In this document: one piece after another, positions 238 to 17,305 of the stretch
Layout: the number at the start of each line of letters is the position of its first letter
Numbering within the stretch: position 1 is the stretch's first letter
Assembly: GCA_041737355.1 (NCBI GenBank)
Contig: JBGSRW010000008.1
Location: 24,466-88,465 of the forward strand
Reading direction: 5' to 3'
Source: Patescibacteria group bacterium
GTDB lineage: Bacteria; Patescibacteriota; Patescibacteriia; XYB2-FULL-38-15
Length of the DNA: 64,000 bases
Translations under genes and position numbers: made by a program
Notes under the pieces: model-generated
What the model saw: only the letters and a program-made list of their open reading frames with translations
Databases searched by the model: none
Told to the model about the DNA's origin: nothing

Positions 238-1866
238 ATGATTAAAAATTTGCTGAACGGAGAATCTAAAACAATTACCGGGGCTGCTCTTCTTTTGGGA
301 GCAGCTTCTTTGGCGTCCCGTTTTTTGGGAGTTATCCGCGACAGGGTTCTGGCCGGACAATTCGGGGCGGGCGATACTCTCGATGTTTATTACGCCGCCT
401 TCCGTATCCCTGATTTTATTTTCAATCTCCTGATTTTGGGCGCTCTCTCGGCCGGCTTCATTCCAATTTTTACCGCGGCGCTTTCTTCAGCGAAAGAGAG
501 GGGGGATAATTTTGGCAAGGCGTGGGATATCGTGAGCGGACTGATAAACATAATGGGCATTCTTTTAATTTTTCTTTGCGGTTTGTTTATCGTTTTAAGC
601 CCTTTTATTGTTCCGGTTATCACTCCTGGTTTTGGCGCGGAAAAAATGGCACTGACCGTGACAATGACCCAGATCATGATGCTTAGTCCGCTTTTTTTGG
701 GTTTGAGCAATATTTTCGGCGGAGTTCTCCAATCCTTCAAAAGATTTTTTATTTATTCCCTGGCTCCTATTTTTTATAATCTCGGTATTATTCTCGGAGC
801 TTTATTTTTTACCAAATGGTGGGGAATTTGCGGTTTGGCGGTCGGGGTAATTCTTGGGGCGATCGCCCATATGCTGATCCAGCTACCGGCTGTTGTTTCC
901 CTGGGTTACCGTTACCGGTGGATTTTCAATCTTGCCGACCAGAATGTCCGGCAAATCGGCCGGCTTATGATTCCCCGGACTCTCGGTCTGGCCGTTTCTC
1001 AAGTCAATCTGGTGGTGATGACAGTTATTGCCTCGACTCTTGTTCCGGGAAGTCTCGCCGTTTTTAATCTTGCCAACAATCTCCAATATTTTCCGATCGG
1101 AATCATCGGTATTTCTTTTGCCGTCGCCGCTTTTCCGGTTTTGGGGGAATGCGCGGCCGGCGGGCGAAAAGAGGAAATGGTTAAAAATTTTTCCCACTCC
1201 GTCCGGCAGATTTTGTTTTTTATCGTTCCAGCCGCTGTTCTGCTTTTGGTCTTGCGTGCCCAAATTGTTCGCGTTATTTTTGGATCGGGTGAATTTGATT
1301 GGGAGGATACGATTTTGACCGCCGATACTTTGGCTTTTTTTGTTACGAGTTTGTTTGCCCAAGCCCTGGTTCCGCTTCTTGCCAGATTTTTTTACGCGTT
1401 GCAAGATACTAAAACGCCCTTTTTTATTGGTTTATTTTCAGCCGTAGTTAATGTTTTTTTAGCAATATATATGGCCGAAAGATGGGGCGTGATCGGCCTG
1501 GCCGCGGCTTTTTCGGCTTCCAGTATTTTAAATTTTTGTCTTCTTTGGATTTTGCTGCGGGTAAAGTTCGGTTCGCTTGATGAGAAAAGGATTCTCGGTT
1601 CGGCATTTAAAATCAGCGTGGCCGCGGTTCTGATGGCGTTCAGTATCCAGGGCATGAAAGCCGCTCTCGCGCCATTCGTTGATATGCAGACTTTTTTGGG
1701 TATTTTTGGTCAAGGTTTGGGAGCCGGCTTGGTTGGCCTTATTGTTTTCGTTATTTCCGGATTTCTCCTCGGTTCAAGGGAAATGTTCGCGGTCCGCGAC
1801 GCGGTGAAGTACAAATTATTCAAAATAAAAAGGCCGATTATTAATGATGAGGAGGGGCAAAGGTAA
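238..1866 (+). CDS. murJ: lipid II flippase MurJ/MviN
   Basis: 542-aa polytopic membrane ORF. The N-terminus ASRFLGVIRDRVLAGQFGAGDTLDVYYAAFRIPDFIFNLL is typical of MurJ. Confidence 0.85.
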   Translation: MIKNLLNGESKTITGAALLLGAASLASRFLGVIRDRVLAGQFGAGDTLDVYYAAFRIPDFIFNLLILGALSAGFIPIFTAALSSAKERGDNFGKAWDIVSGLINIMGILLIFLCGLFIVLSPFIVPVITPGFGAEKMALTVTMTQIMMLSPLFLGLSNIFGGVLQSFKRFFIYSLAPIFYNLGIILGALFFTKWWGICGLAVGVILGAIAHMLIQLPAVVSLGYRYRWIFNLADQNVRQIGRLMIPRTLGLAVSQVNLVVMTVIASTLVPGSLAVFNLANNLQYFPIGIIGISFAVAAFPVLGECAAGGRKEEMVKNFSHSVRQILFFIVPAAVLLLVLRAQIVRVIFGSGEFDWEDTILTADTLAFFVTSLFAQALVPLLARFFYALQDTKTPFFIGLFSAVVNVFLAIYMAERWGVIGLAAAFSASSILNFCLLWILLRVKFGSLDEKRILGSAFKISVAAVLMAFSIQGMKAALAPFVDMQTFLGIFGQGLGAGLVGLIVFVISGFLLGSREMFAVRDAVKYKLFKIKRPIINDEEGQR

Positions 1867-3644
1867 TGCGGGAAAAAATTAGAAATTTTTGTATTATTGC
1901 TCATATTGATCACGGAAAGTCGACTTTAGCCGACCGTCTTTTGGAATTTACCGGAACGGTAGCTAGGCGGGATATGAAAGATCAAATGCTTGACATGATG
2001 GATCTTGAACGCGAAAGGGGAATTACCATCAAGCTTCAGCCGGTGCGCATGGATTACAAAGAACATATTTTAAATTTAATTGATACGCCAGGACACGTCG
2101 ATTTCAACTATGAAGTCTCTAGGTCACTTGCCGCCGTGGAAGGCGCGCTTCTTTTGGTTGATGCGACGCAAGGTGTCCAGGCCCAGACGCTCGGTAATTT
2201 ATATTTGGCACTGGAACAGAATCTAACAATCATTCCGGTAGTCAATAAAATTGATCTTAAAAATGCCGAAGTGGAAAAAACCGTCCAGGAAATTACCGCC
2301 CTGATCGGCTGCAAAAAGGAGGAGGTAATTTTGGCTTCGGGGAAAAGCGGGGCCGGAGTTCCGGAAATTTTGGAAGCAGTTGTTAATAAAGTTCCTTCGC
2401 CAAAAGGAGAAATAAGTAAACCGCTGAGGGCGTTGATTTTCGATTCAAAGTACGACGACTACAAGGGAGTCGTCGCTTATGTCAGAGTTGTGGACGGCGA
2501 AGTAAAAAGGGGGGATAAAATATATTTGGCGGCCACCAAAATCGAAAGCGAAGTTTTAGAGGTTGGATATTTTAAACCAAAGTTTGTTCCGGCCGGAAAA
2601 TTATCAGCCGGGGAAATCGGTTATATTGTGACCGGGCTCAAGGAAATAGAAAGATGCCGGGTCGGCGATACTATAACGGTTCACGATCCGGATCTGACAG
2701 TCCAAAGTTTACCGGGGTATAAAGAAGTTAAACCGATGGTTTTTGCCGGAATTTTTTGCAAGGAAGGGGACGATTTTCCGAAACTGCGCGAAGCAATTTT
2801 AAAATTAAAATTGAACGATGCGGCTCTGACTTTTGAAACCGAGCAGTCCAAGGCGCTCGGCTTCGGTTTTCGCTGCGGTCTTTTGGGTTTGTTGCATCTT
2901 GAAATTGTGGAAGAGCGTCTGCGGCGAGAACATAATCTTGACGTGATTGTTACCGTGCCGTCGGTAGCGTACCGTATTACCAACAATAAGGGAGAAGTGT
3001 TGATTATTAAAAGTCCGTCGGAATTGCCCGACATGAGCCATATCAAATTGATCGAAGAGCCGTGGATTAAAATTGATGTGGTTTCTCCGAGCACCTACAT
3101 CGGCGGTATCATGCAAATGGTGCAGGAAAAGAGGGGAGTATATATCGACACGGAATATTTGGATGCCGACCGGGTTATCTTGCATTATGAAATTCCTCTC
3201 TCGGCAATTCTTGTGGATTTTTACGATAAATTAAAAAGTGTGAGCTCCGGCTATGCTTCATTGAATTACGAATTTTTCGGATATAGGGAGGCCGATGTTT
3301 TGAAAATGGATATTTTGGTGGCGACCGAACCGGTTGAGGCGCTCGCGACAATCGTCTACCGCGACACGGCCCAGGATGTCGGGCGGAGAATTGTCCAGTC
3401 TTTAAAAAAAGTTTTGCCGCGCCAGATGTTTGAAGTTAAAATCCAGGCGGCGCTTGGCGGGAAAATTGTCGCCTCGGAACACTTGCCGGCGATGAAAAAG
3501 GATGTGACAGCCAAGCTTTATGGGGGAGATGTAACAAGAAAGAATAAATTGCTTGAAAAACAGAAAAAGGGCAAGAAAAAGATGAAAGCGTTGGGCAAAG
3601 TTGACATTCCACCTGAGGCATTTTTAGCGGTTCTGAAGAAATAG
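1866..3644 (+). CDS. lepA: translation elongation factor 4 (LepA)
   Basis: 592 aa with a GTPase G1 motif (AHIDHGKST) and DTPGHVDF. The C-terminal LepA-type domain is present. The ATG overlaps the murJ stop (TAATG). Confidence 0.95.
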   Translation: MREKIRNFCIIAHIDHGKSTLADRLLEFTGTVARRDMKDQMLDMMDLERERGITIKLQPVRMDYKEHILNLIDTPGHVDFNYEVSRSLAAVEGALLLVDATQGVQAQTLGNLYLALEQNLTIIPVVNKIDLKNAEVEKTVQEITALIGCKKEEVILASGKSGAGVPEILEAVVNKVPSPKGEISKPLRALIFDSKYDDYKGVVAYVRVVDGEVKRGDKIYLAATKIESEVLEVGYFKPKFVPAGKLSAGEIGYIVTGLKEIERCRVGDTITVHDPDLTVQSLPGYKEVKPMVFAGIFCKEGDDFPKLREAILKLKLNDAALTFETEQSKALGFGFRCGLLGLLHLEIVEERLRREHNLDVIVTVPSVAYRITNNKGEVLIIKSPSELPDMSHIKLIEEPWIKIDVVSPSTYIGGIMQMVQEKRGVYIDTEYLDADRVILHYEIPLSAILVDFYDKLKSVSSGYASLNYEFFGYREADVLKMDILVATEPVEALATIVYRDTAQDVGRRIVQSLKKVLPRQMFEVKIQAALGGKIVASEHLPAMKKDVTAKLYGGDVTRKNKLLEKQKKGKKKMKALGKVDIPPEAFLAVLKK

Positions 3645-3663
3645 ACTTAAAAGTTTAAAAGAG

Positions 3664-3695
3664 AAAAATCACCTGAGAATGGTGATTTTTTGTTT
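3664..3695 (+). terminator. intrinsic terminator after lepA
   Basis: Stem AAAAATCACC (3664-3673) pairs with GGTGATTTTT (3681-3690) and is followed by a T-rich tail. Confidence 0.7.
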
Positions 3696-3766
3696 ATTTA
3701 TGACAATTTATTTTGGCTAAAATAAGCCAAAAGATAGGATTATTTTAGAAATAGTGTCAAAAGCCC

Positions 3767-3795
3767 TTGACAAAATCTAAGATACGTGTTATACT
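3767..3795 (+). promoter_or_regulatory. consensus sigma70-type promoter of the GC-rich island
   Basis: TTGACA (3767-3772), a 17-nt spacer, then TATACT (3790-3795). The -35 context is CTTGACAAAATCT. Confidence 0.7.
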
Positions 3796-3859
3796 TACTT
3801 GTTAAGCTGAAATAGGCTTAAAATAAAAAAAGTGCTTGTCGTGTCAAGTTCTTTACAAA

Positions 3860-4044
3860 GTGCCAGAGAAATTTGGAGGAGGAAGTCTTCGCGGACCATT
3901 TATTGGTAACCGCGTGACTCGGTGTTCGGTTGAGTTAAAGCTCGGTTTTCCCGTTTGGGACTACTAAGATTCAACTCGCCAAAACGCCATTGCTGTTCCA
4001 ATGCTAATTGGAGCGGCGCGCTCACCTCCAAATTCCTCTGGCAC
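3860..4044 (+). promoter_or_regulatory. structured 5' leader domain closed by a 20-bp stem
   Basis: GTGCCAGAGAAATTTGGAGG (3860-3879) pairs with CCTCCAAATTCCTCTGGCAC (4025-4044) at 19 of 20 positions. The stem encloses about 145 nt with several local hairpins (for example CGCGGACCA..TGGTAACCGCG and CCAAT-GCTA-ATTGG). It lies between the promoter and the SD of the 4131 ORF. Confidence 0.55.
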
Positions 4045-4130
4045 ATCTCCGTGAAAAATCGGAGGGCCAAAGGTCAGACTGTGGATGTTCCCGGTCTGAT
4101 TTTAGTAAACGCAAATAAGGAGGTTTTCTG

Positions 4131-5384
4131 ATGGAGAACGGCAGCAAGGAGATTGTGGTTGGCAAGGAGCCGACGGCTACGGCCGAGGCGTTCCTCGAGC
4201 CGCCGAGCGAGGACGACGAGTGGTTGCTCCTGGATTTCAATCCGGCGGCGACCGAGTCCGCGCCGGCCGTGCCCGAGACGCCGAAGCCCAAGCCGCCGCG
4301 CGTCTGCGCGATCTGCCAGCACCCCTCCGGGAATTCGGTGGGCAAGATCAAGCGCGGGCGGATCGCCGAGGTCGAGCACGAAGGGATGAAGCTGCTCACG
4401 CTCGAACCAATCTGCGAACCGTGCGGCGAGAAGTTGCCGCCCGAGGAGCGGAAGAGGCTCTTCAAGGCGGGGTACCTCATCTCCCTGATCGGCGAGAAGA
4501 ACCGCGAGATGCGCGAGTTCGAGGCGGCCAAGGCCTACTGGGCTGCGGTCTTCGCCGGTACGGCAGAGCGGATGCCCGAGGCTCGCAAGACGCCCGAGGA
4601 GATGCTCTCCTGCGGGGTGCCCGGCTGCCCCCGCTGTCACGATCAGGTCGGCCACAAGGTCGGCCACTTCGTGGCGATGACGATCGGCGGCATGCCGACG
4701 CTTCTCGGGGTCTGCTCCTTCCAGGCCGCGGCCTTGGCACAGTGCGGGGTCGAAAAGAAGGGCATCGTCGTGACGACGAAGTTCTCCGTGGCCGCCCCGA
4801 TCGTCGAGGCGGAGAACGCCAGGCTCCAGGCCTTCGAGAAGGCCAAGAGTTTCTGGCTCGCCGTGGCCGAAGGCGAGGCGGCGGTCGAGGCGCGGGCCGA
4901 GAAGACCGAGCGCGGCGACATCTACCGCTGCGGCGTCCCCGGCTGCAAGTGCCGGGAGCACGGCGACCGGCCGGTCGACTACTTCGTGGTCTTGGACGGC
5001 CAGCCCGAGATGCCCATCGCGGGTGTCTGCCGATACCAGTATGCGGCGCTCCGGACCTCCGGGGTGAAGATCTTCGCCGCGAACAACAACGACGGGATGG
5101 GCCTCGCGCGGTGCGCCAAGCACCGCAACTGGCTCCTCGGCCAGGCCAAGAGGGCCATCCGCGACGTCCGGAGGCCGGACGGAATCGGCGGCGGTCTCTC
5201 CCGTTTCCGCTCGCCCGAAGAACAGGCGCGGATCCGCGAGGAGAAGCGCCGGACGTTCGAGGAGCGCGAGGCCAAGCGCCGCTCCCGGCAACTCGAGCGG
5301 GCCAAGGCCTCCTCCAGCAAGGCCGGCTGCGGCAAGAAGGCCAGCAGCAAGAAGGGCGGCAAGGGCGGCGGCAAGAAGCACTAG
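4131..5384 (+). CDS. orphan protein with three tandem Cys/His-rich modules and a Lys/Gly-rich C-terminal tail (gene A)
   Basis: SD AAGGAGG (4117-4123) sits 7 nt before the ATG. Codon third positions are GC-rich in this frame. The ORF has three repeated modules and the tail ...SSSKAGCGKKASSKKGGKGGGKKH. Confidence 0.7.
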   Translation: MENGSKEIVVGKEPTATAEAFLEPPSEDDEWLLLDFNPAATESAPAVPETPKPKPPRVCAICQHPSGNSVGKIKRGRIAEVEHEGMKLLTLEPICEPCGEKLPPEERKRLFKAGYLISLIGEKNREMREFEAAKAYWAAVFAGTAERMPEARKTPEEMLSCGVPGCPRCHDQVGHKVGHFVAMTIGGMPTLLGVCSFQAAALAQCGVEKKGIVVTTKFSVAAPIVEAENARLQAFEKAKSFWLAVAEGEAAVEARAEKTERGDIYRCGVPGCKCREHGDRPVDYFVVLDGQPEMPIAGVCRYQYAALRTSGVKIFAANNNDGMGLARCAKHRNWLLGQAKRAIRDVRRPDGIGGGLSRFRSPEEQARIREEKRRTFEEREAKRRSRQLERAKASSSKAGCGKKASSKKGGKGGGKKH

Positions 5385-5419
5385 CTGGCCGGCCGCTCTC
5401 CCACCAATTTGTTCTTTTC

Positions 5420-5542
5420 TTGGAGCAAGTAGTCTGTGCAATGCAGACACTGTTCGTCAATCACTCTAAGGTGAACGGCGACAGGATCTTGCTCCAAGTC
5501 CTTTTCCTCCAAATCAGCGTAAGTTGGTCTGGAGAAAAGGGA
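5420..5542 (+). repeat. 123-nt structured repeat, copy 1 (R1), just after the gene A stop
   Basis: Identical base for base to 6114-6236. It contains a perfect 10-bp closing helix, TTGGAGCAAG/CTTGCTCCAA, around two hairpins. A second imperfect hairpin of about 12 bp follows (5499-5542). Confidence 0.9.
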
Positions 5543-5597
5543 ATTAGCTCTTTGGCAATTTCGGCGCATAGCGCCGTAGAAAGAAAGGAGATAGTTG

Positions 5598-5930
5598 ATG
5601 GTTCAGGTTCTGATGCTGGCCCTGTTCAGCGTCGCCAAGCGCGACGAACGCGAGGCGAGCGACGAGGGCAGTGAGACCGACGCGGTCGAGCTGCCCGAGG
5701 ATTCGGTCAACTGGCGGGCGGTTCGTTGGCTGGGCGTCGCGAAGATGCCGCGCCGTCGGGGTGGTCGGGCGGCCAACCGTTGCCTTGCCGACATCCCGCC
5801 GCCACCGGTTCGTTTCTCGCGCGAAGGGTTTGACGGACTTCATTCGTGGAAGCGTCAGACTCCGGCCCGCCGTCAGTGGGCCAAGCATCTTCGGAAATCT
5901 TGGGGGCGCGGAAAGAAGGTGGAGGTATGA
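5598..5930 (+). CDS. orphan Arg-rich protein, 110 aa (gene B)
   Basis: SD AAGGAG (5585-5590) sits 7 nt before ATG 5598. Third positions are GC-rich. The stop overlaps the next start (ATGA at 5927-5930). Confidence 0.55.
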   Translation: MVQVLMLALFSVAKRDEREASDEGSETDAVELPEDSVNWRAVRWLGVAKMPRRRGGRAANRCLADIPPPPVRFSREGFDGLHSWKRQTPARRQWAKHLRKSWGRGKKVEV

Positions 5931-6106
5931 AGAAGGAGTGTCGCAAGAGCGTGCCGGAGGTCAAGACGGGAGAGGGTGTTTACATCCTCCGCGTCATGCC
6001 CCAGCCGTCCGTCTGCGCGCACGAGGCGGTCCGTCCCTCCACCCGGCCGATCATACGCTCCGCCATCAAGATCGTCGGCCAGCACGGCCGCGACTGTCTC
6101 CCATAG
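5927..6106 (+). CDS. orphan protein, 59 aa (gene C)
   Basis: ATG 5927 is preceded by GGTGGAGG and overlaps the gene B stop. Third positions are GC-rich. The ORF ends at TAG 6104-6106, directly before repeat copy 2. Confidence 0.5.
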   Translation: MKKECRKSVPEVKTGEGVYILRVMPQPSVCAHEAVRPSTRPIIRSAIKIVGQHGRDCLP

Positions 6107-6113
6107 TTTGTTC

Positions 6114-6236
6114 TTGGAGCAAGTAGTCTGTGCAATGCAGACACTGTTCGTCAATCACTCTAAGGTGAACGGCGACAGGATCTTGCTCCAAGTCCTTTTC
6201 CTCCAAATCAGCGTAAGTTGGTCTGGAGAAAAGGGA
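6114..6236 (+). repeat. 123-nt structured repeat, copy 2 (R2), just after the gene C stop
   Basis: 100% identical to 5420-5542. Weaker similarity extends upstream (CTCCCA..TTTGTTC). Confidence 0.9.
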
Positions 6237-6286
6237 TTCCAAAATTTTTTAGCCATTTTTACGGCTAGTCAGATCCCACGCAAGGG

Positions 6287-6315
6287 CACCGCCAGTTGGC
6301 GGTGTTTTTGTTTTT
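6287..6315 (+). terminator. intrinsic terminator closing the GC-rich island
   Basis: CACCGCC (6287-6293), loop AGTT, GGCGGTG (6298-6304), then TTTTTGTTTTT. Confidence 0.8.
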
Positions 6316-6321
6316 AAAATG

Positions 6322-6330
6322 TGCTATAAT
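6322..6330 (+). promoter_or_regulatory. extended -10 promoter (TGCTATAAT)
   Basis: An exact TGCTATAAT. The same 9-mer recurs at 8646, 16113, 17286, 26872 and 38529. Confidence 0.55.
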
Positions 6331-6360
6331 AGTCCAATATTTATTTTACGTAATGTTTTT

Positions 6361-6459
6361 ATGAAAAAGAAAAATTTGCAGAAAATAGTATGGATAATTG
6401 TCTCAGCTATTGTAGTTTTTTCCATGGTTGTCTGGACAATCGGGCCAATGCTGTATTAG
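6361..6459 (+). CDS. possible small hydrophobic protein (32 aa)
   Basis: ATG..TAG encodes MKKKNLQKIVWIIVSAIVVFSMVVWTIGPMLY, a single transmembrane-like segment, downstream of the 6322 promoter. There is no SD and it is too short for the ORF track. Confidence 0.3.
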   Translation: MKKKNLQKIVWIIVSAIVVFSMVVWTIGPMLY

Positions 6460-6489
6460 CCGCGGAGTTTGTAATTTGTTATTAAAAGT

Positions 6490-8220
6490 ATGAAGTGGAA
6501 AGTCGCCGAACCGATCAGCGAAGAATTCAGAAATAAATTTCCGGAGATCGATCCGGTTATTTTGCAATTACTCGCTAACCGTGGGGTAAAAACCCAGGAA
6601 CAGATTGATGAATTTCTGTATCCAGATTACGGGCCTGATATTCACGATCCGTTTTTATTTTTGGATATGGAAAAAGCGGTCGAGCGGGTTTTCCGGGCGG
6701 TGGAGAAAGGAGAAAAAATTACGGTTCATGGCGATTACGACGCCGACGGAGTTTGCTCGGCATTGATCGTAGTCAGTACGCTCGAAGCCATGGGTGCTAA
6801 AGCCGAGGTTTATCTGCCGCACCGCGAACTCGAAGGGTATGGACTGAATATGCAAACAGTTGAAGAGTTGGGGAAAAGAGGGACAAATCTTATTATTACA
6901 ACCGACTGCGGCATCAGTAATCGGGAAGAGATAAAAAGAGCGGTTGAACTTGGAATGGAAGTAATTGTCACCGACCATCATGCCGAGCCGCTTAATTTGC
7001 CCGAGGCAGCTTTGGCAATTATCAATCCCCATTTGGCGCGAGAAAAGTATCCTTTTAAGGAATTGTCCGGGGCGGGAGTAGCTTTCAAATTCGTTCAGGG
7101 GATTTTACATAAAATAAAAACAACGGCGCCAAAAATAGAATTCAGGGAAGACCCGGAGGGATTTGAAAAATGGCTTCTGGATCTTACGGCTATTGCCACG
7201 ATTGCCGACATCATGCCCCTCTTGGGCGAGAACCGGACGATCGTAAAATACGGCTTGATTGTCCTGAACAAAACCAAACGGCTGGGATTGAAAAAAATGA
7301 TTGATTCGCTGGGCTTGAACAAGGCAAAATTGCTTGACGCAAGAAACGTATCTTTTCAGATTAGTCCGCGGCTGAACGCGGCCGGCCGGATCGACCACGC
7401 CAACCAGGCCTATGAACTTTTAAAAACATCGGACGGGAACGAAGTTGATAAATTGGTCGCGGCCCTGAATAAAACCAACGAAGACAGGCAAGCGCTTTCC
7501 GAGCGCGTAACGGCCGAAGCCAAGGAGAAAATAGGAGAAGAGGTTGGCGAAAGAAAAGTTTTGTTCGCCGTGGGTAAGGGTTGGCCGATAGGTATTGTCG
7601 GATTGGTAGCCGGGAAAATAGCCGATAATTTATGGCGGCCGACTTTTATTATGGCAGAAAAAGAGGGGAACATTATGGGGTCGGGAAGGAGTATTCCGGA
7701 ATTTGATATTATGGAAGGGCTCAGGGAGGCGAAAGAATTTTTGTCACATTACGGCGGACACGCCGGAGCCTGCGGATTTACCCTGAAAAATAAAAAAGAT
7801 CTGAAGAGGTTTGAAAAGACCCTGGAGAAATTTGCTGAAAAAAAATTAGCCGGCTCGGAACTTGTCCCAAGCCTGAATATTGACTCGGAAGTTAAACTGG
7901 AAAAAATAAATTGGGAGCTTTTCGAGCTCTTGGAAAAATTTTCACCATTCGGGAAGGGGAATGAGCGGCCGAGATATTTGGGGAGGGGTTTGACGGTCGA
8001 AAGCTTTGAAGGGGTGGGAAATAATGGAAATCATTTACGCATAAATTTGAGCCACGAAAACGGCCAAAAGAAAAAATTTATAGGTTTTTGTTTTGGAAGC
8101 TGGTGCGAGAAATTAAAAGCGGGAGATAAAATTGATGTAGTTTTTGAAATTGATGTTAATGAATGGAACGGGAACAGGGAACTGCAGATGAAAATTATTG
8201 ATTTAAAACATAGCGAATAA
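6490..8220 (+). CDS. recJ: single-stranded-DNA-specific exonuclease RecJ
   Basis: 576 aa with DHH-family motifs (HGDYDADGVCS, TTDCG, VTDHH) and a DHHA1-like GGHAGACG. Confidence 0.9.
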   Translation: MKWKVAEPISEEFRNKFPEIDPVILQLLANRGVKTQEQIDEFLYPDYGPDIHDPFLFLDMEKAVERVFRAVEKGEKITVHGDYDADGVCSALIVVSTLEAMGAKAEVYLPHRELEGYGLNMQTVEELGKRGTNLIITTDCGISNREEIKRAVELGMEVIVTDHHAEPLNLPEAALAIINPHLAREKYPFKELSGAGVAFKFVQGILHKIKTTAPKIEFREDPEGFEKWLLDLTAIATIADIMPLLGENRTIVKYGLIVLNKTKRLGLKKMIDSLGLNKAKLLDARNVSFQISPRLNAAGRIDHANQAYELLKTSDGNEVDKLVAALNKTNEDRQALSERVTAEAKEKIGEEVGERKVLFAVGKGWPIGIVGLVAGKIADNLWRPTFIMAEKEGNIMGSGRSIPEFDIMEGLREAKEFLSHYGGHAGACGFTLKNKKDLKRFEKTLEKFAEKKLAGSELVPSLNIDSEVKLEKINWELFELLEKFSPFGKGNERPRYLGRGLTVESFEGVGNNGNHLRINLSHENGQKKKFIGFCFGSWCEKLKAGDKIDVVFEIDVNEWNGNRELQMKIIDLKHSE

Positions 8221-10220: not shown

Positions 10221-10272
10221 AAAGTTCTGGGGATATTAATGCTTGCCAGAGTTGGTGGGCGGTCGGTTTTTG

Positions 10273-10281
10273 TGGTATAAT
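10273..10281 (+). promoter_or_regulatory. extended -10 promoter (TGGTATAAT) of the pilus operon
   Basis: TGGTATAAT lies 34 nt upstream of the pilM ATG. Confidence 0.5.
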
Positions 10282-10314
10282 ATTAAAAGTAAATTATCAA
10301 TAGTTAATCGATAT

Positions 10315-11400
10315 ATGCAAAAAAGTTATTTAGGCGTTGACCTCGGGGCAACCAGTATCAAAATCGTCGAATTGAAGGAAGAGGCCGGTCGGCCCAGGCT
10401 TCTTACTTACGGTTATACCGAACAGGCCGCCGGTTATCCGGAAAAAGAATTTACCGATACCCCAGAGAGATCAATCGATCTTATCAAACAGGTTTGCGTC
10501 AAAGCCAGAACCGTCTCGAAGCAAGCGGTTGCCGCACTTCCCTCCGCGTCCGTTTTCAGTTCGGTCATAAATATTCCGGCCGCGCCAGGCAAGGATTTGG
10601 CCGCCGCCGTGCAATGGGAGGCCAAAAAAATTATCCCACTGCCTCTTGAGGAAATGATTTTGGATTGGAAAATTTTAACTCCGGAAGGGGAGACGGCCGG
10701 GACCGCAGCGCCCGCTCCGGTAATACCTACGGTTCAGGCGTCCGCTCCGAAAACAACGCAAGTTTTGCTGACCGCCGCTGCAAAAACAATGGTCAAAAAG
10801 TATTTGGATATTTTTAAAGGTGCCGGGTTGAGCCTTGTCAGTCTTGAAACGGAAACGTTCGCCCTGATCAGATCTCTCGTCGGGATCGACAAGTCCACCG
10901 CGATTCTCGTGGATATGGGGGCGGCGAGTACGACTATTTCAATCGTTGAGAGCGGAATTCCATTTTTGAACCGTTCTTTGAATATCGGCGGACTGACAAT
11001 AACAAAAGAAATAGCGGCAAGTTTGGGTATCGATTTGAATCAGGCTGAACAGATGAAGTACGACGTCGGGATGGCGGGAGCGGGAACGGGCGGAGGAGGC
11101 GTACCAAAAATTATCGAGCGCGCCCTTTCGATGCTTTTGAACGAAATAAAATACTGTACCAATATTTATCAAAGCCAGGACAATACCAGGGGGCGCCGGA
11201 TAGAAAAAATCGTTTTGACCGGAGGAGCCGCCCTTTTGCCCGGTTTTCCGGACTATCTAGCCGGGGCGTTGAATACAAGAGTTTTTATAGGCAATCCCTG
11301 GGCAAGGGTTATTTACCCCGAGGAACTGAGACCAATTTTGGACCAGATCGGTCCTAAATTTTCCGTCGCAATCGGTTTGGCGATGAGGGAAATAGAGTAG
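10315..11400 (+). CDS. pilM: type IV pilus assembly ATPase-fold protein PilM
   Basis: Actin-like fold signature (YLGVDLGATSIKIVEL ... VLTGGAALLPG). It is the first gene of the pilMNO-BC order. The start is taken at MQKSYLG. Confidence 0.8.
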   Translation: MQKSYLGVDLGATSIKIVELKEEAGRPRLLTYGYTEQAAGYPEKEFTDTPERSIDLIKQVCVKARTVSKQAVAALPSASVFSSVINIPAAPGKDLAAAVQWEAKKIIPLPLEEMILDWKILTPEGETAGTAAPAPVIPTVQASAPKTTQVLLTAAAKTMVKKYLDIFKGAGLSLVSLETETFALIRSLVGIDKSTAILVDMGAASTTISIVESGIPFLNRSLNIGGLTITKEIAASLGIDLNQAEQMKYDVGMAGAGTGGGGVPKIIERALSMLLNEIKYCTNIYQSQDNTRGRRIEKIVLTGGAALLPGFPDYLAGALNTRVFIGNPWARVIYPEELRPILDQIGPKFSVAIGLAMREIE

Positions 11401-11435
11401 CCGATAATTCGAGGAAAATTAAAATTTTCGTTTTT

Positions 11436-12416
11436 ATGCCGAACGGCAATAAAAATAACGGAAAGAAGGAGATTGAATTGCTCCCGGCAGAATTCAGGAG
11501 GCCAGAAGAAAAAAAGAGACGGGAGGAAAGGCCGGAAGTGAAATTATTTATTCCTCCGGCGGAAGCTAAATCTCAAAGGGAAACCTTTACGGGGAGGTTT
11601 TTTGGTACAAGAGAAACGCCGAAGCCGGTTGAAAATAAAAATGTTCGTGAAGAAACGGATATGTCGGTCTTCAAAATGCAAAAAGAGCCGAGAAAACCCC
11701 TCCAGCCCCCACCGCCTCCGCCGCCGCCACGTTCGGTTCCGCCTCCGGTCGCTTTGCGCCAAGCTCCTCAGATAAAAAAAGAACCTCTCCCGCCGCCAAA
11801 ATTACCGCCGCAATCAGCCGGAAAAGGTATTGTTTCGTCTAAAAACAGAATGGGAGGGATTACCCTGATTCCCGAAGAAAAAACATCTCCCAAGGAAGCG
11901 GCGAGACCCAAGCAAAAAGTTATTCTTGCGGTAATGGTGATTATTTTGGTCGCCATTTTAGGCGGAGTTTTTGGAATATTGGCGTGGTATTCGGGAGCGG
12001 CAAAAAATGAGTTAGCAAAGATAGAAAAAGATGTCGCCGCGGTAGAACAACAAATCAAAAATTTGGATGAAGCCAAAAATCGCGCCCAGACATTACAAAA
12101 GCAATTTCAAATTGCCGAGAAACTTTTGAATAGCCATGTTTACTGGACCGGGGTTTATTCTTTTCTTGAAAAAAATACCATCCCGGAAGTCTATTTTAAA
12201 AATTTTGTCGGCGGAAGCGACGGGCAGATCAGTATGTCTGGGGTAGCGAAAAGTTACAAGGCGGTTGCCGGCCAGATAGTTTCTTTGCGCGAAGCGGAAA
12301 AAGTGGAAAAAGTTTCCATTACTAGCGCGTCGGCAAGTGTTTCTCCGACAGGGGAGACAGCCGAAGTAAATTTTGACGTCAAATTAAAATTAAATCCGGA
12401 GATATTTTTAAAATAA
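11436..12416 (+). CDS. pilN: PilN-like bitopic pilus assembly protein with a Pro/Lys-rich cytoplasmic region
   Basis: One TM segment (VILAVMVIILVAILGGVFGILAWY) is followed by a coiled-coil. The call rests mainly on its position between pilM and pilO. Confidence 0.55.
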   Translation: MPNGNKNNGKKEIELLPAEFRRPEEKKRREERPEVKLFIPPAEAKSQRETFTGRFFGTRETPKPVENKNVREETDMSVFKMQKEPRKPLQPPPPPPPPRSVPPPVALRQAPQIKKEPLPPPKLPPQSAGKGIVSSKNRMGGITLIPEEKTSPKEAARPKQKVILAVMVIILVAILGGVFGILAWYSGAAKNELAKIEKDVAAVEQQIKNLDEAKNRAQTLQKQFQIAEKLLNSHVYWTGVYSFLEKNTIPEVYFKNFVGGSDGQISMSGVAKSYKAVAGQIVSLREAEKVEKVSITSASASVSPTGETAEVNFDVKLKLNPEIFLK

Positions 12417-12419
12417 AAT

Positions 12420-13004
12420 ATGGCCGAAAAATCGGAAGTAAAAAAAGAAGAAAAATCCAAGGAAAAAACCTCCATCGTTCTTTTTATTTTTTTGGCAGTG
12501 GCGGTTTTCGCAGCTCTTTCATATTTTTTGGTTTGGCCTCAATACGAAAAATTTTCCCAGACTAAAAATAAAATTACGGCGGAAAAGGCTCGGCTTGATG
12601 ACCAAAAAGCAACGCTGGCAAATATAAATAAAATGATTGCCAATTACGAGGCGATCGGTCAGGCGAACCGGGAGAAACTGGCCTCGATGCTGCCGGAAAC
12701 GACAGACGAGCCGGGATTGTTTGTTCTTTTCGAAGCACTGGCAATAAAAAATAAAATGGCGCTTTTGGCCTTGGATATAAGCGAGAAGGACGTTTCGGCT
12801 GATTTAAAAAACTTAGGGGTGAAAGAGGTTAACATCGCCGCCAATCTGACGGGGGGAGGTTACGCCGACTTTAAAAATTTGCTTGCGGATTTGGAAACAA
12901 ATTTAAGGCTTATGGATATTACGGCAATAAATTATACCCCAGACCCTTCTTCGCTGACGCTCAACGTAAAAACTTACCGTCTGAATAATTCTCCGGCTAA
13001 ATAG
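12420..13004 (+). CDS. pilO: type IV pilus assembly protein PilO
   Basis: 194 aa with an N-terminal TM, a coiled-coil, then an alpha/beta domain. Position in the operon supports the call. Confidence 0.6.
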   Translation: MAEKSEVKKEEKSKEKTSIVLFIFLAVAVFAALSYFLVWPQYEKFSQTKNKITAEKARLDDQKATLANINKMIANYEAIGQANREKLASMLPETTDEPGLFVLFEALAIKNKMALLALDISEKDVSADLKNLGVKEVNIAANLTGGGYADFKNLLADLETNLRLMDITAINYTPDPSSLTLNVKTYRLNNSPAK

Positions 13005-13019
13005 ATTTAAGAGGCACAT

Positions 13020-13262
13020 ATGAATAAAAAAATTATTTATTTAGCGGGCTTAGCGTTAATTTTAGGAATTGGCGGCTATTTTTTATATAGCTTGCTTCTT
13101 CCGGGCGGAGATATTCCGGCGACCGGAACGGCTAAAAATTTTGAATTCAAGTTTAAAACAAAGATTTTTTCTGATCAGAAATTTTCTGATCTAAAAAATA
13201 ATATAAATTTACCGGTAAAAGCCGGCGAAAAAGGGAAGACTAACCCGTTCATGAAATTTTAG
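13020..13262 (+). CDS. small membrane-anchored protein of the pilus operon
   Basis: 80 aa with an N-terminal hydrophobic anchor, located between pilO and pilB. Confidence 0.5.
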   Translation: MNKKIIYLAGLALILGIGGYFLYSLLLPGGDIPATGTAKNFEFKFKTKIFSDQKFSDLKNNINLPVKAGEKGKTNPFMKF

Positions 13263-13265
13263 TGT

Positions 13266-14999
13266 ATGGCAAGTCCGTTGCTCAATCTTCTGGTGGAAGA
13301 AAAATTTATAGAGAAGGACACGGCGCAGGCAATTGTTGAAGAGAGCCAGAAAACCGGAAAAAGCGTAGAATCAATCATCGAAGAATCCGGCGCCGTTGAA
13401 GAGGAAAAATTGGCCGAAACAAGGGGCCGGATTTTTAATTTGCCATACGCAAATCTTGTCGGCCGGGAAATAAAATTCGAAGACCTGAATATAATCCCGA
13501 AGGACGTAGCGGAAAATAACCAAGTAATATCTTTTGAACAAATCGACGGGGAAGTCAGTGTCGGCATAGTTGATCCTAAAAATATCTCCGCCATGGAGGC
13601 CTTGCAGTTTTTGGCCAAGGAAAAAAATTTTTCTATAAAATATTTCGCGATATCCCACACAAGTTTCAAGGATGCCGCCAAAAAATATGAAATTTTGAAA
13701 AAAGAGGTTGAAAAAGTTTTGGAAATTGCTAAAGAAAGATTTACGTCGGAGGAAAAGGCTATCGAAGAGGTTCCTTTGGGGCAGATTGAGGAAGTGATCA
13801 AAAAGGCGCCCGTTTCCAAGATGGTCGCGATGATAATGAAGTATGCTGTTGACAATAAGGCGTCGGATATTCACATAGAGCCGGGTTTTAAGGAATCCAG
13901 GGTTCGCTACAGGGTTGATGGTGTTTTGAAAGGGAGATTGGCTCTTCCGGCTTACATTCATGCCGCGGTTGTTGCGAGAATTAAAGTTTTGGCAAATTTG
14001 AAACTGGACGAAACAAGAATTCCCCAAGACGGGAGAATTCGTCAGGCAATCGGAGGGAGGAATGTCGATTTTCGTATTTCAACTCTTCCGTTGATGGATC
14101 AGGAAAAAGTCGTAATGAGGGTGCTCGAAACGGCAAGCCGGGCCGCTTCGCTCGAGAATCTCGGTTTCCGCGGTCGGGCGGTCGAAGTTATTTCGAGAGA
14201 GATAAAAAAACCGCACGGTCTATTGCTTGTGACCGGTCCGACCGGGTCGGGGAAGTCGACAACTCTTTATACGGCCTTAAGCATGGTTAACCGTGAGGGA
14301 ATAAATATAGTAACACTTGAAGATCCTATTGAATATTATATCGAGGGGGTCAACCAATCTCAGATAAGGCCGGAAATCGGTTTTACTTTCGCGGCCGGAC
14401 TCAGGGCGCTTTTGCGCCAGGATCCGAATATTATCATGGTCGGAGAAATCCGCGACAGTGAAACGGCTGAACTCGCGATTCACGCGGCATTAACAGGACA
14501 TTTAATTTTTTCGACTTTGCACACCAACGACGCGGCCGGAGCAATTCCCCGCCTGATTGATATGAAAGTAGAACCATTTTTGCTTTCCTCGACGCTCAAT
14601 GCCATTGTAGCCCAGCGTTTGGTAAGAAAAATTTGCCCTTACTGCAAAGAACAAATCGATGCGCCGGAGGAAGTCGTAGCTGATTTCAGGAAAGAATTGG
14701 TTACTGTGCCAAAAAGATTCGTGCCCAAGGATATAGACATAAGCAAAAAGATTTCTTTATGGCATGGAGTCGGCTGCGCCCGTTGCGGAAACGAGGGATA
14801 CAGCGGACGGGTTGTTATTTCCGAAGTTATTGAAGCAACCGAAAATTTGAGGCAAATCATCGCCACGGGTTTTAATATAAAAAGTCTTAATGAGGAAATG
14901 GAGCGGCAGGGAGTTATTTCCATGAAGCAGGACGGATATCTGAAAGTTCTCGAGGGTTTGACGACAATTGAAGAAGTGATGAGGGCAACCCAGGAATAG
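13266..14999 (+). CDS. pilB: type IV pilus assembly ATPase PilB (GspE family)
   Basis: 577 aa with Walker A (GPTGSGKST), Walker B plus Asp box (IIMVGEIRD), a His box (TGHLIFSTLHTN) and a tetracysteine motif (CPYC...CARC). Confidence 0.9.
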   Translation: MASPLLNLLVEEKFIEKDTAQAIVEESQKTGKSVESIIEESGAVEEEKLAETRGRIFNLPYANLVGREIKFEDLNIIPKDVAENNQVISFEQIDGEVSVGIVDPKNISAMEALQFLAKEKNFSIKYFAISHTSFKDAAKKYEILKKEVEKVLEIAKERFTSEEKAIEEVPLGQIEEVIKKAPVSKMVAMIMKYAVDNKASDIHIEPGFKESRVRYRVDGVLKGRLALPAYIHAAVVARIKVLANLKLDETRIPQDGRIRQAIGGRNVDFRISTLPLMDQEKVVMRVLETASRAASLENLGFRGRAVEVISREIKKPHGLLLVTGPTGSGKSTTLYTALSMVNREGINIVTLEDPIEYYIEGVNQSQIRPEIGFTFAAGLRALLRQDPNIIMVGEIRDSETAELAIHAALTGHLIFSTLHTNDAAGAIPRLIDMKVEPFLLSSTLNAIVAQRLVRKICPYCKEQIDAPEEVVADFRKELVTVPKRFVPKDIDISKKISLWHGVGCARCGNEGYSGRVVISEVIEATENLRQIIATGFNIKSLNEEMERQGVISMKQDGYLKVLEGLTTIEEVMRATQE

Positions 15000-15023
15000 T
15001 TTCCGGAAATTGGCGAAATTTTT

Positions 15024-16109
15024 ATGGCGATAGACATAAATTTGGACAAATATTTGGCGAAAATCCCTTTTTTTAACAGGATTCCGCCGAAAGATTTGGT
15101 TATTTTTTCTCGGCAGTTATCTGTTATGATTTCTGCCGATGTTCCGATTGTTCAGGCCCTCAAGGTTCTTGTCCGCCAAACGGCAAATAATAATTTGAAA
15201 ACGGTAGTGGCTAATCTTGCTGCGGACGTCGAGGGGGGCACAAAATTTTCCGCGGCACTTTCGCGTTATCCCGATACTTTCAGCGATTTTTTCATAAACA
15301 TCGTCCGTTCCGGGGAAACGACGGGAAAACTTGATGAAGTTTTGGACTATTTGGCTACCCAACAGGAAAGAGATTACGATTTATCAAGCAAAATAAAAGG
15401 CGCCATGATTTATCCGGCGTTTATTTTATTTGGGCTTATTGCCGTCGGGACGGTGATGATGATTTTTGTTATCCCTAAATTAACCGATATTTTAAAGGAA
15501 ACGGGAGCGACATTGCCTCTCTCGACGAGAATTTTGATTGGAACTTCCGATATTATGAAAAATTACTGGTGGGCGCTTCTGATCGGTTTGGTAGCTTTTG
15601 TCGGCGGATTAAGATATCTAATTGCCCTGCCCTTGGGCAGGAAATATTGGGACACCATGAAATTAAAGCTTCCGATTTTCGGCCAGCTTTTTAAGAGAAT
15701 TTACATGGTCCGTTTTACGCGCGGACTTTCAACCCTCTTGACCGGAGGGGTGGAAATTGTCGGCAGTTTGAAAATAGCCGGAGCAATTGTTGGCAATGCT
15801 GTTTACCAAGATTTGATTTTACAGACTGTCCGCGAGGTGGAAGACGGCAATCCGATAACTACAGTTTTTGCAAAAAGCAAAGAAATTCCCGTGATGGTAA
15901 CCCAAATGCTCGGCATCGGCGAGCAGACAGGCAAAATCGACGCTATTTTGGCCCGCCTGACGGATTTTTACACCCGCGAAATAGAAAACATGGTCAGAAA
16001 TTTAACGACGATCATGGAACCGCTGATCATGCTTTTCATGGGCGTGGCGGTCGGCATCATGGTTGCGGCGATTATTTTGCCGATGTACAATCTGGCATCG
16101 CAATTTTAG
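15024..16109 (+). CDS. pilC: type IV pilus platform protein PilC (GspF family)
   Basis: 361 aa with a duplicated T2SS-F domain pattern and three TM segments. Confidence 0.85.
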   Translation: MAIDINLDKYLAKIPFFNRIPPKDLVIFSRQLSVMISADVPIVQALKVLVRQTANNNLKTVVANLAADVEGGTKFSAALSRYPDTFSDFFINIVRSGETTGKLDEVLDYLATQQERDYDLSSKIKGAMIYPAFILFGLIAVGTVMMIFVIPKLTDILKETGATLPLSTRILIGTSDIMKNYWWALLIGLVAFVGGLRYLIALPLGRKYWDTMKLKLPIFGQLFKRIYMVRFTRGLSTLLTGGVEIVGSLKIAGAIVGNAVYQDLILQTVREVEDGNPITTVFAKSKEIPVMVTQMLGIGEQTGKIDAILARLTDFYTREIENMVRNLTTIMEPLIMLFMGVAVGIMVAAIILPMYNLASQF

Positions 16110-16112
16110 ACG

Positions 16113-16121
16113 TGCTATAAT
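16113..16121 (+). promoter_or_regulatory. extended -10 promoter (TGCTATAAT) upstream of the major pilin
   Basis: An exact 9-mer 84 nt upstream of ATG 16205. Confidence 0.5.
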
Positions 16122-16204
16122 TTATAAATGTGGATAATTGAATATTTAAATCCTATGCTCGTGACTTAGAAGCTTAAAGCCGCGAGCCGAAAGGAGGTGA
16201 AAGA

Positions 16205-16648
16205 ATGTTTAAAAATAAAAAAGGTTTCACTTTGATCGAATTGTTGGTGGTTATCGCCATCATCGGTCTTCTCTCGACTTTGGCGGTCGTTGCCTTGAGC
16301 AGCGCCAGAACCAAAGCCAGAGACGCGAAAAGAACTGCCGACATGAAGCAGGTTCAGACAGCCATGGAGCTCTATTATAATACTAATAGCGCTTATCCTT
16401 CATGCGCCGCCGGTACATTGGTTTCGGCTTGCGCCGCCTTAGCACCTGATTACTTGCCGGGCGTTTTGACCCTGAAAGATCCGGGTGGAGTTGCCGGTGC
16501 TTGCGCCGATCCGGCAGCAGCGAAATGTAACTACGCCTTTGGTACTGCCGCAGCGAACGAAGGCTATAGAATTACTTTCTGGCTTGAAGGAGCGACCGGA
16601 GATTTGGCTGCCGGAGCCCACAGAGTTACGGCTATGGGAATCCAGTAA
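16205..16648 (+). CDS. pilA: type IV pilin, paralog 1
   Basis: Class III signal peptide KKG|FTLIELLVVIAIIGLL with Glu at +5. SD is AAGGAGGTG. Confidence 0.9.
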   Translation: MFKNKKGFTLIELLVVIAIIGLLSTLAVVALSSARTKARDAKRTADMKQVQTAMELYYNTNSAYPSCAAGTLVSACAALAPDYLPGVLTLKDPGGVAGACADPAAAKCNYAFGTAAANEGYRITFWLEGATGDLAAGAHRVTAMGIQ

Positions 16649-16671
16649 ATTTTGTCTCGAAATTTCGAGAA

Positions 16672-16700
16672 AAACTCCCCGCGAGGGGAGTTTTTGTTTT
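16672..16700 (+). terminator. intrinsic terminator after pilin 1
   Basis: AAACTCCCC, loop GCGA, GGGGAGTTT, then TTGTTTT. Confidence 0.8.
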
Positions 16701-16755
16701 GGGACATTTTGTAGTATAATTAATTTAATATACCAAAAAGAAAGGAGGTGAAAGA

Positions 16756-17217: not shown

Positions 17218-17285
17218 CCGAATTTTTGATGCATCAAAACAAAAGCCCTTTTATCAGGGTTTTTGTTTTTTTTATAAGGTTTTTG

Positions 17286-17294: not shown

Positions 17295-17305
17295 TTAATA
17301 ATATG

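Follow-up and report, generated by a model that had tools for sequence, protein, structure and literature searches.

What kind of genetic unit is formed by gene A, an open reading frame (ORF) for a cysteine-rich protein with a strongly basic tail, which lies between lepA and recJ in a 64,000-nucleotide (nt) stretch of a Patescibacteria genome (assembly GCA_041737355.1, contig JBGSRW010000008.1; the whole stretch is referred to as the window, and coordinates count from its first letter)? An answer requires knowing whether the ORF is a gene, whether its protein belongs to a known family, and how it relates to the structured elements around it. Gene A is a real gene and 4131-5384 on the forward strand is its coding frame. 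The locus is more interesting than an earlier, preliminary description made from the DNA letters had stated, in that it comprises a conserved transcription unit, two covarying RNAs, and a family-wide lock of synonymous sites to G and C combined with rapid protein evolution.

The coding assignment cannot be read from ORF length alone. DNA surrounding gene A has a guanine-plus-cytosine (GC) content of 68-70%, in a window of 45% GC, and at this composition long ORFs are present in five frames, so that their length is no proof of coding. The forward frame is identified instead by the combination of codon-position GC, conservation among homologues and a confident structural model. The order GC3 > GC1 > GC2 (GC at third, first and second codon positions), the signature of high-GC coding sequence, is confined to this frame (0.64/0.49/0.93 for positions 1, 2 and 3); Cys, Trp and Gly positions are kept among homologues (about 30 of them for the Cys/Trp pattern); and, translated in this frame, the protein shows Cys4 motifs that are conserved, repeats itself internally to a significant degree and gives a confident AlphaFold2 (AF2) model. 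The ORF coordinates and motifs of the preliminary description all check out, and the two alternative genes that it had named are rejected on codon-position GC and on frames broken in relatives. The antisense ORF (4074-5450; GC 0.89/0.50/0.62) is an in-register shadow frame, open in the window and in the related loci L001, L004, L007 and L012 because TTA, CTA and TCA codons are absent from gene A; the shortage of these codons is itself weak (about 6 observed versus about 11 expected, with an expectation manually scaled to a host that uses CTA and TTA rarely). The same frame is broken by one stop in L029, L031 and L032 and is also stopped in several distant members, so that a selected antisense gene was rejected: openness follows codon bias, and three clade members lack the intact frame. 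The +2 ORF (4220-5674), whose codon positions 1, 2 and 3 are gene A positions 3, 1 and 2 (GC 0.93/0.64/0.49, values derived from the frame offset and the codon-position GC of gene A), is not kept at full length in L004 or L012. That the true product is encoded by either of these ORFs, or is a large non-coding RNA, is a reading that the five open frames and the antisense frame open in several loci might invite, but against the evidence just given it is hardly credible.

A search of 5.8 billion proteins found nine homologues of gene A, and its profile recovered only 18 clusters among 1.84 billion representative proteins. Sequence comparison thus makes gene A a member of a previously undescribed family, whose members have to date come only from genomes of Patescibacteria and from compositionally similar, low-GC metagenome contigs. 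The preliminary description had been unable to place the protein in any known family, and this holds after searches of Pfam, NCBIfam, PHROGs, PADLOC and the PDB, none of which gave a family or fold match. Nothing above threshold was found in Pfam, NCBIfam, PHROGs or PADLOC for gene A, for the downstream genes B and C, or for other family members, Pfam returning only a sub-threshold match to DUF6788. At E ≤ 0.1, PADLOC-DB had no match for A, B, C and the family proteins P0015, P0018 and P0022, and PHROGs had none for A, B, C, P0018, P0022 and P0023, save a chance-level match for P0023. Against PDB sequences, neither the protein nor a profile built from 37 module sequences matched anything but alphavirus E3, at chance level (E about 0.15). 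No gene A relatives were found by tblastn against phages and plasmids; scans of IMG/VR with protein patterns and with a pattern for R, the 3' RNA element described below, gave none, or a chance match only; and a scan of GTDB genomes with protein patterns that were too narrow gave no match. No signal peptide or transmembrane segment was detected in gene A. The best explanation of its product, judged from these features, is a cytoplasmic, lineage-restricted multi-zinc protein, zinc being predicted.

Within this protein the preliminary description had recognized three tandem Cys/His-rich modules, each followed by a conserved helix, and a tail resembling that of histone H1. The motifs, the Cys positions and the duplication stand, with modules 2 and 3 (approximately residues 126-211 and 231-315) sharing 38% identity (E = 7e-15), and what does not stand is the third helix (CAKHRNWLL), which is no detectable copy of the other two and has C328 and H331 of its own. 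Nor does a helix follow each module, as the repeat unit is better drawn with the Trp-containing helix first. So drawn, the module of about 85 residues is detected by a module hidden Markov model in all family members, with one to three copies each and two in gene A. It begins with a long helix containing an invariant-like Trp (FEAAKxYW), and continues through a Pro/Arg linker and a Cys knuckle (CGVPxCxC, or the variant C-x7-CC in a distant subfamily) to a beta-hairpin (HFVV...G) and a short helix (GxCxxQxAAL) that is opened by the fourth Cys. The four cysteines of module 2 and the four of module 3 are invariant within the close subfamily, as are C328 and H331. Module 1 has two CxxC knuckles with a beta-hairpin between them (AF2 strands 75-83 and 86-94) and conserved cysteines (C59, C62 and C95 at least 90% conserved in 24 members), features of a C4 zinc ribbon, an assignment of fold class only, since no particular ribbon family gave a match.

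The AF2 model, for which the input was 8 sequences only, has a mean pLDDT (predicted local distance difference test) score of 73.7 and is confident over residues ~60-340, with blocks mostly at 75-93. Beta-hairpin/Cys units alternate in it with long helices (H113-142, H218-246, H324-347), and no known fold was recovered. Gene A encodes 15 Cys and 8 His in total, and the pattern of its cysteines plausibly fits three metal sites, at which zinc is the predicted ligand. Only two segments are well conserved, namely the N-terminal ribbon loop at residues 46-75 (ribbon and loop reading PKPKPPRVCxxCGHPSGNSVGKIRxGR) and module 3. The C-terminal 60 residues are indeed strongly basic, with a net charge of +14, although the comparison with histone H1 extends to charge and not to composition, which is Lys/Gly-rich rather than Lys/Ala/Pro-rich: the last 20 residues hold 7 Lys, 7 Gly and 2 Ala, with no Arg and no Pro. 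A Lys/Gly-rich end of type GKRHKGGQKGGNGGGKKR is recurrent in the family, and 27 of 33 tabulated family proteins have at least six Lys/Arg and at least three Gly among their last 20 residues, which makes this tail a family hallmark.

Gene A is accompanied by two new conserved structured RNAs that lie outside Rfam, a leader upstream and the R element downstream. Where the preliminary description had spoken of repeated RNA-like elements, structured RNAs are indeed found on the gene A strand, and they prove to be two different RNAs, the leader core at 3860-4044 and the 3' element at 5417-5542. The leader is ~330 nt overall; its core has a fold z-score of -7.5 and a closing helix (P1) formed by an inverted repeat of 95% complementarity. 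Compensatory changes were seen at 22 of its 77 consensus pairs in 9 distinct loci, 97.7% of alignment cells are paired versus 31-49% when the partner strand is slid, and none of 500 shuffles reached the observed covariation score. The R element, ~130 nt long, has a fold z-score of -7.1, carries GNRA-type loops on the forward (mRNA) strand, and is present in the window as two copies sharing an exact repeat of 126 nt (5417-5542 = 6111-6236), no further copy occurring within the 64 kb. Nineteen of its 44 pairs show compensatory change in 14 sequences, with 95.4% of cells paired against 36-46% when slid. In both RNAs the closing helix is the part that does not vary: 16 of the 20 pairs of leader P1, and 8 of the 11 pairs of R P1, are the same in all sequences. 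Rfam 15 gave no match at E ≤ 1 over 3400-6700, and at E ≤ 10 only chance hairpins appeared (11-19 bits versus thresholds of 37-100). Identity of either RNA with a group I/II intron, tmRNA/tRNA, RNase P or 6S RNA was rejected for want of an Rfam or ARAGORN match.

The surroundings of the leader indicate its role. Upstream is a near-consensus promoter that is kept in L001 and, in part, in L004 (by alignment), and the hairpin at the predicted transcript start is nearly invariant in 9 loci, four of which (L001, L004, L019 and L022) have variable hairpins inserted just downstream of it. At the other end, the stem of the terminator-like hairpin (AAGGUCAGAC...GGUCUGAUUUU) is kept in 9 loci and is 100% paired, its loop being variable. 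A covarying domain is thus located on the same strand directly upstream of the ORF and is followed by a terminator hairpin, the order found in cis-regulatory leaders; promoter and terminator together argue that the leader is cis-regulatory, and its layout is that of a candidate attenuator. No convincing alternative pairing for an antiterminator was found on inspection by eye. By blastn in the window and the fetched loci the leader is single-copy, and it always precedes a member of the gene A family.

Several observations concern the two RNAs jointly or their variants. A 19-nt segment in the 5' strand of leader P1 (3871-3889) shows 79% complementarity to the 5' strand of the long R hairpin (5496-5514 and 6190-6208), CCUCCAAAU is common to leader and R (4026-4034 versus 5506-5514), and the leader has in its 3' arm UCACCUCC, a sequence resembling the 16S rRNA 3' end. 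The complementarity could reflect a long-range contact between the 5' and 3' parts of the transcript, or a shared protein site; compensatory support for the 19 nt was not seen across loci. Short tandem repeats of ACGAAT type occupy tolerant loops, of R P4 in L001 (7390-7425) and of the leader in L022 (about 3925-4000). R copies in L001 (7290-7381 and 8118-8208) and in L032 are ~74% identical and represent two distinct R types, whereas the window copies are 100% identical, from which recent gene conversion or duplication of R in the lineage of the window follows. A weak but significant R-like match to the covariance model (33.8 bits, E about 4e-6) is located in L010 (1158-1318), where it closely follows P0010, a distant member of the family, and by this match the association of gene and R may extend beyond the lepA-recJ clade.

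How constant is this arrangement? Pattern scans for R in GTDB genomes and Joint Genome Institute (JGI) metagenomes gave 13 true-R loci at no fewer than 9 distinct sites: the GTDB scan identified three Patescibacteria metagenome-assembled genomes, and 10 of the 21 loci returned from metagenomes have a true R. In all of these R is directly preceded by a family gene unless the contig ends first (L008 and L009 are cut off in high-GC sequence), and R strictly co-occurs with the gene A family. Similarly, lepA is upstream and recJ downstream wherever contigs reach, an arrangement repeated in the loci fetched through their proteins, and the gene A slot is always between these two genes, in one Patescibacteria clade.

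Against this constancy of position stands the divergence of the proteins. The hosts are close relatives (LepA 89-93% and RecJ 80-89% identical), and their family proteins are 33-57% identical between subtypes, contain one to three Cys units and have unrelated N-termini. The ratio of non-synonymous to synonymous substitution rates (dN/dS) is 0.41-0.83 for gene A versus 0.03-0.12 for lepA, recJ and murJ (0.04 for lepA), and non-synonymous change in gene A is 6-8 times faster than in its neighbours. At synonymous sites the relation is reversed, the proportion of differing sites (pS) in gene A being 0.24-0.38 versus 0.50-0.73 in lepA, recJ and murJ (synonymous distance, dS, 0.8-2.7). Nucleotide identity between genomes is 73-87% for the leader and 72-95% for R, far above the conservation of neutral sites, which places both RNAs under strong purifying selection. 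A comparison of L001 with L032 finds the leader 100% and R2 98% identical, versus ~72-92% per 100-nt window for gene A (mean ~80%); from this contrast one may suspect an exchange of alleles for which the conserved RNAs served as anchors, with effects of metagenome assembly also possible.

The base composition of gene A is a property of the family and not only of the window. GC3 of clade members is 0.89-0.96 versus 0.35-0.54 for lepA and recJ. Distant members, in settings that include a position next to RNase J, another between TruD and DeoC, and L014, reach 0.76-0.87 versus 0.36-0.50 for neighbours with a Pfam-annotated function, so that the elevation is seen in at least four genomic contexts, the exception being P0010 (0.58), from a 1.3-kb contig without neighbouring genes. 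In gene A itself Lys is encoded by AAG at 35 of 35 positions, Phe by TTC at 14 of 14 and Ile by ATC at 15 of 16, as compared with a host that uses AAA, TTT and ATT for 73%, 74% and 55% of those residues. The GC rise is bounded by the ends of the ORF within about 30 nt, the leader, R body and spacers having 33-53% GC. Synonymous differences between homologues are mostly C<->G exchanges (27 of 49 and 32 of 49 in two comparisons), meaning that these sites change while staying G or C and that GC is maintained rather than decaying. This turnover and the recurrence of the lock across contexts rule out a recent, un-ameliorated transfer, and the G/C preference points to selection, or a strong bias, at the level of the ORF itself. 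General translational codon adaptation was considered as a cause and rejected: a pilin-like gene of the window, presumably highly expressed, does not share the bias (GC3 0.57; AAG at 4 of 11 Lys codons), and ordinary adaptation is therefore no obvious cause. Candidate causes are a stable mRNA or one that escapes A/U-directed nucleases, regulation of decoding, and biased gene conversion at a recombination hotspot.

The features of the unit are collected in the table. Its terminator, placed after the second R copy, has a conserved counterpart downstream of the final R in both L001 and L004. Genes B and C, which separate the two R copies, were found only in the window, L001 and L032 and are fast-evolving. 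A homologue of B holds the same position in L001 and L032, and the fusion protein P0008 has gene A modules 1-2 joined to a B-like part that forms its C-terminal half. Neither B nor C had a match in any library, and the idea that they are decayed copies of A was rejected after a negative tblastn. In L004 (7790-8125; also L005, 3999-4334) a low-GC gene for a DUF559/Vsr-like endonuclease is found between R and recJ, in the place taken by B, C and R2 in the window.

Table. Features of the gene A locus. Nucleotide positions refer to the window and residue positions to the gene A protein.
Feature	Position	Strand	Description
lepA	1866-3644		upstream of the gene A unit; own terminator at 3663-3691
Gene A transcription unit	about 3800-6315	+	promoter, leader, A, R1, B, C, R2, terminator
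Sigma-70-type promoter	3767-3795	+	TTGACA, 17-nt spacer, TATACT, upstream TG; 11 of 12 consensus positions
Predicted transcript start	3803-3850	+	short hairpin UAAGCU...AGGCUUA, then A-rich spacer
Leader RNA core	3860-4044	+	20-bp P1 (3860-3879 with 4025-4044) closing three arms
Terminator-like hairpin and U-run	4070-4103	+	14 nt before the Shine-Dalgarno sequence; candidate attenuator
Shine-Dalgarno sequence AAGGAGG	4117-4123	+	
Gene A	4131-5384	+	417 residues; GC by codon position 0.64/0.49/0.93; homologues, internal repeat, AF2 model
N-terminus	residues 1-55 (~55 residues)		acidic, disordered, variable
C4 zinc ribbon (module 1), predicted	residues 59-98		CAIC...CEPC at C59/C62 and C95/C98
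Module 2	residues 126-211		Cys 161/166/169/195; CGVPGC from C161 (nt 4611-4628)
Module 3	residues 231-315		Cys 267/272/274/300; CGVPGC from C267 (nt 4929-4946)
Helix with C328/H331			after module 3
Arg/Lys helix	residues 362-393		
Lys/Gly tail	C-terminal end		KKGGKGGGKKH
R1	5414-5549	+	P1 (CUUGGAGCAAG with CUUGCUCCAAG) around two hairpins, then long hairpin P4; 137 bits (covariance model)
Gene B	5598-5930	+	110 residues; GC3 0.74; no family match
Gene C	5927-6106	+	59 residues; GC3 0.86; start overlaps the B stop (ATGA)
R2	6108-6243	+	second R copy, 100% identical to R1 over 6111-6236; 139.5 bits
Intrinsic terminator (unit end)	6287-6315	+	CACCGCC-AGTT-GGCGGTG, then T5GT5
recJ	6490-8220		downstream of the gene A unit

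Elsewhere in the window, a cluster of type IV pilus/competence type (10243-18224) comprises genes for a PilM-like protein, T2SS-F, a prepilin with an N-methylation motif and a prepilin peptidase; clusters of this kind are typical of Patescibacteria and, should allele exchange occur, would matter for DNA uptake. An ORF at 25741-26808 (355 residues, 57% GC, GC3 0.68), with a GGDGT motif recalling lipid or NAD kinases and no Pfam match at 1e-5, is a second and milder compositional outlier, possibly acquired DNA. Two further ORFs (39948-40814 and 57931-58257) have GC3 of 0.69 and 0.74 versus 0.44-0.52 for the genome.

What, then, would such a protein do between two such RNAs? Autoregulation by RNA binding, taken as a whole, is tentatively favoured as a model of gene A, at somewhat less than even chances. 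The protein would bind nucleic acid, probably RNA, its zinc modules making shape-specific contacts and its basic tail contributing non-specific affinity; it would recognize sequence-invariant helices, namely P1 of its own leader, P1 of R, or both; and binding would shift termination at the leader hairpin, or the stability of the mRNA, whereby the protein would set its own level in the manner of ribosomal-protein leaders. The parts of this model differ in credibility. Binding of nucleic acid in a generic sense is slightly more probable than its opposite, with indirect support from the conserved basic tail, the acidic N-terminus and the ribbon and knuckle motifs, while the proposal that leader and R are the specific ligands is rather doubtful. 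In favour of the latter, the closing helices never vary while other helices covary, which suggests sequence-specific reading and would make the invariant P1 of leader and of R candidate recognition sites.

Several observations weigh against autoregulation. No known nucleic-acid-binding fold was recovered for gene A. The RNAs are 80-95% conserved between genomes with proteins merely 33-57% identical, a mild objection in that such a gap would be unusual for a specific pair unless the ribbon loop at residues 46-75 alone makes the contact. The type of R does not track protein subtype, L004 having a three-module protein with an R variant of the one-module clade. A dN/dS of 0.4-0.8 and modules that are gained and lost suit a gene in conflict better than they suit a housekeeping regulator; a riboswitch for a metabolite or an ion, with no need for a protein, would fit the leader just as well; and autoregulation does not account for the GC lock. 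A place for the lock would be found in a self-contained ribonucleoprotein system, in which a new multi-zinc RNA-binding protein recognizes two new RNA modules bracketing its own compositionally locked mRNA. G and C would then be kept since the mRNA is functional or protected (resistance to A/U-directed ribonucleases, storage or packaging), and in the extreme version the transcript would undergo Gag-like packaging for storage or for epibiont-host transfer. Such a system must be regarded as a long shot.

As the main rival to autoregulation, gene A would take part in conflict, be it phage defence, counter-defence or action on the epibiont's bacterial host, its surfaces and module number being diversified by positive or balancing selection, with the leader providing merely tight control and the conserved flanks serving as anchors for allele swapping by homologous recombination. 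The dN/dS values set against those of lepA, recJ and murJ, the one to three modules and unrelated N-termini among genomes with LepA ~90% identical, the near-identical RNAs around a gene A of about 80% mean identity in L001 and L032, and the P0008 fusion of A with B all speak for such a role, yet on balance it is unlikely: PADLOC and PHROGs returned no matches, the operon is without an enzymatic or effector partner, the protein is without a signal peptide or transmembrane segment, relatives are absent from viral contigs, phages and plasmids, the locus is fixed and outside any variable defence island, and the L001/L032 contrast is partly explicable by assembly collapse of conserved segments. An opposite emphasis, on abundance, would make gene A a structural nucleic-acid-binding protein of the nucleoid, or associated with ribosomes or RNA, like zinc-ribbon ribosomal or histone-like proteins, its GC codons serving expression or mRNA stability. 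It would be in line with the basic tail and helix conserved in the family, the strong consensus promoter, 5' and 3' RNA structures stable enough to suit a long-lived mRNA, and the presence of the gene at every lepA-recJ site recovered, though these sites were found via the gene or R. Against it, non-synonymous change in gene A is about 6-8 times faster than in its neighbours; the pilin-like gene lacks the bias, so that G/C-ending codons are not obviously the optimal set of this genome; and the leader terminator argues for conditional over constitutive expression. For these reasons abundance as the explanation is improbable.

The leader might alternatively act on its own, as a riboswitch for a metabolite or metal, e.g., Zn2+, with gene A as its cargo, for instance a zinc buffer or chaperone, and R as a 3' stabilizer. 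Its conserved, covarying multi-arm domain with invariant junction nucleotides, ahead of a terminator that in turn precedes the Shine-Dalgarno sequence, follows the classic order of aptamer and expression platform, and the 15 Cys and 8 His of the protein would suit the cargo. Riboswitches usually control several types of gene, unlike the single leader copy found (blastn, window and fetched loci), always before the gene A family; moreover no alternative antiterminator pairing was identified, helices that switch are usually shorter than the invariant 20-bp P1, and no ligand can be inferred, which together leave this role with a small chance. Smaller by far is that of a foreign origin, in which the 2-kb island of 68-70% GC was recently received from a high-GC donor as a mobile, integron-like cassette with R as its attC-like site. 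The sharp jump from ~45% to ~70% GC, the repeat after each gene block and a cargo that varies by genome (A alone, A with B and C, or A with the DUF559 gene) give this idea its appeal. It fails to explain why the same slot is filled across a clade with flanking-gene dS of 1-2, why the family is never met in a high-GC context among 15 billion proteins while distant members in low-GC contexts are also GC3-rich, why the GC rise tracks the ORF ends to about 30 nt and spares the leader, R body and spacers, or why synonymous turnover is mostly C<->G. No recombinase was seen among the neighbours called or scanned, an annotation that is partial (lepA, murJ, recJ, RNase H and pilus genes), and R covaries as an RNA inside a promoter-to-terminator unit. 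As to an integron cassette array, in which an IntI integrase and attI lie next to promoterless cassettes ending in attC sites, the gene A unit has its own promoter and terminator, an R that covaries with GNRA loops on the mRNA strand, and clade-wide synteny.

Whichever role applies, the gene A family contributes a repeat module for which neither solved structures nor curated families offer a detectable relative, from a phylum of largely unknown biology. Covariation of leader and R is strong enough for both to be proposed as Rfam families, with a candidate protein partner at hand. Synonymous sites that are about 90% G/C in genomes of 42-48% GC, across deep divergence and despite fast protein change, are an anomaly beyond standard explanations; should the cause lie in selection acting at the mRNA (its stability, packaging or escape from nucleases) or in biased conversion limited to the ORF, the gene would offer a compact, recodable test case for synonymous composition in bacteria.

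Comparison with known systems places gene A near several of them and inside none. Pfam DUF6788 (PF20586) shares a short CG-x-P-x-C-x-C zinc knuckle, gene A residues 265-281 aligning with profile positions 31-50, but the match scores 15.7 bits (E = 0.017) versus a gathering cut-off of 27.2 and covers ~17 residues of a 103-position profile, for a family that is itself of unknown function. Weak matches of this kind occur in 5 of 24 family members, and the link is a motif resemblance rather than membership. The tails of linker histone H1, bacterial Hc1 and mycobacterial Hlp are likewise strongly basic, of low complexity and C-terminal; gene A differs from H1 in its Lys/Gly tail (GKGGGKK) and in lacking a winged-helix globular domain, no match to the Pfam Linker_histone family of H1/H5 being found in gene A or in 24 members, and the similarity may be taken as a loose analogy of charge only. 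In retroviral and Gag-like nucleocapsid proteins, zinc knuckles and basic regions bind structured signals on their own RNA. Gene A resembles them in combining Cys-rich knuckles with basic segments, encoded by an RNA that keeps its structured ends conserved for longer than its coding sequence, and differs in having no CCHC knuckles, capsid-like fold, reverse transcriptase/protease or viral relatives, so that the likeness would be a speculative analogy of function. The leaders of ribosomal proteins (L10, L20, S15) and of pnp are protein-responsive attenuators or mediate autoregulation. Theirs is the mechanism proposed here for gene A, and its leader is, like them, a long, conserved and structured 5' untranslated region with a terminator or Shine-Dalgarno-proximal hairpin, placed before a predicted basic nucleic-acid-binding protein; it differs in that gene A is non-ribosomal, its leader has no Rfam match, and a related-looking 3' element is also present. 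Finally, the C-terminal domain of bacterial topoisomerase I is a tandem array of zinc ribbons with a basic tail, of which the Lys-rich tail binds single-stranded nucleic acid, and gene A likewise has several Cys4 units followed by a Lys-rich tail, with a CxxC...CxxC first module and its predicted beta-hairpin.

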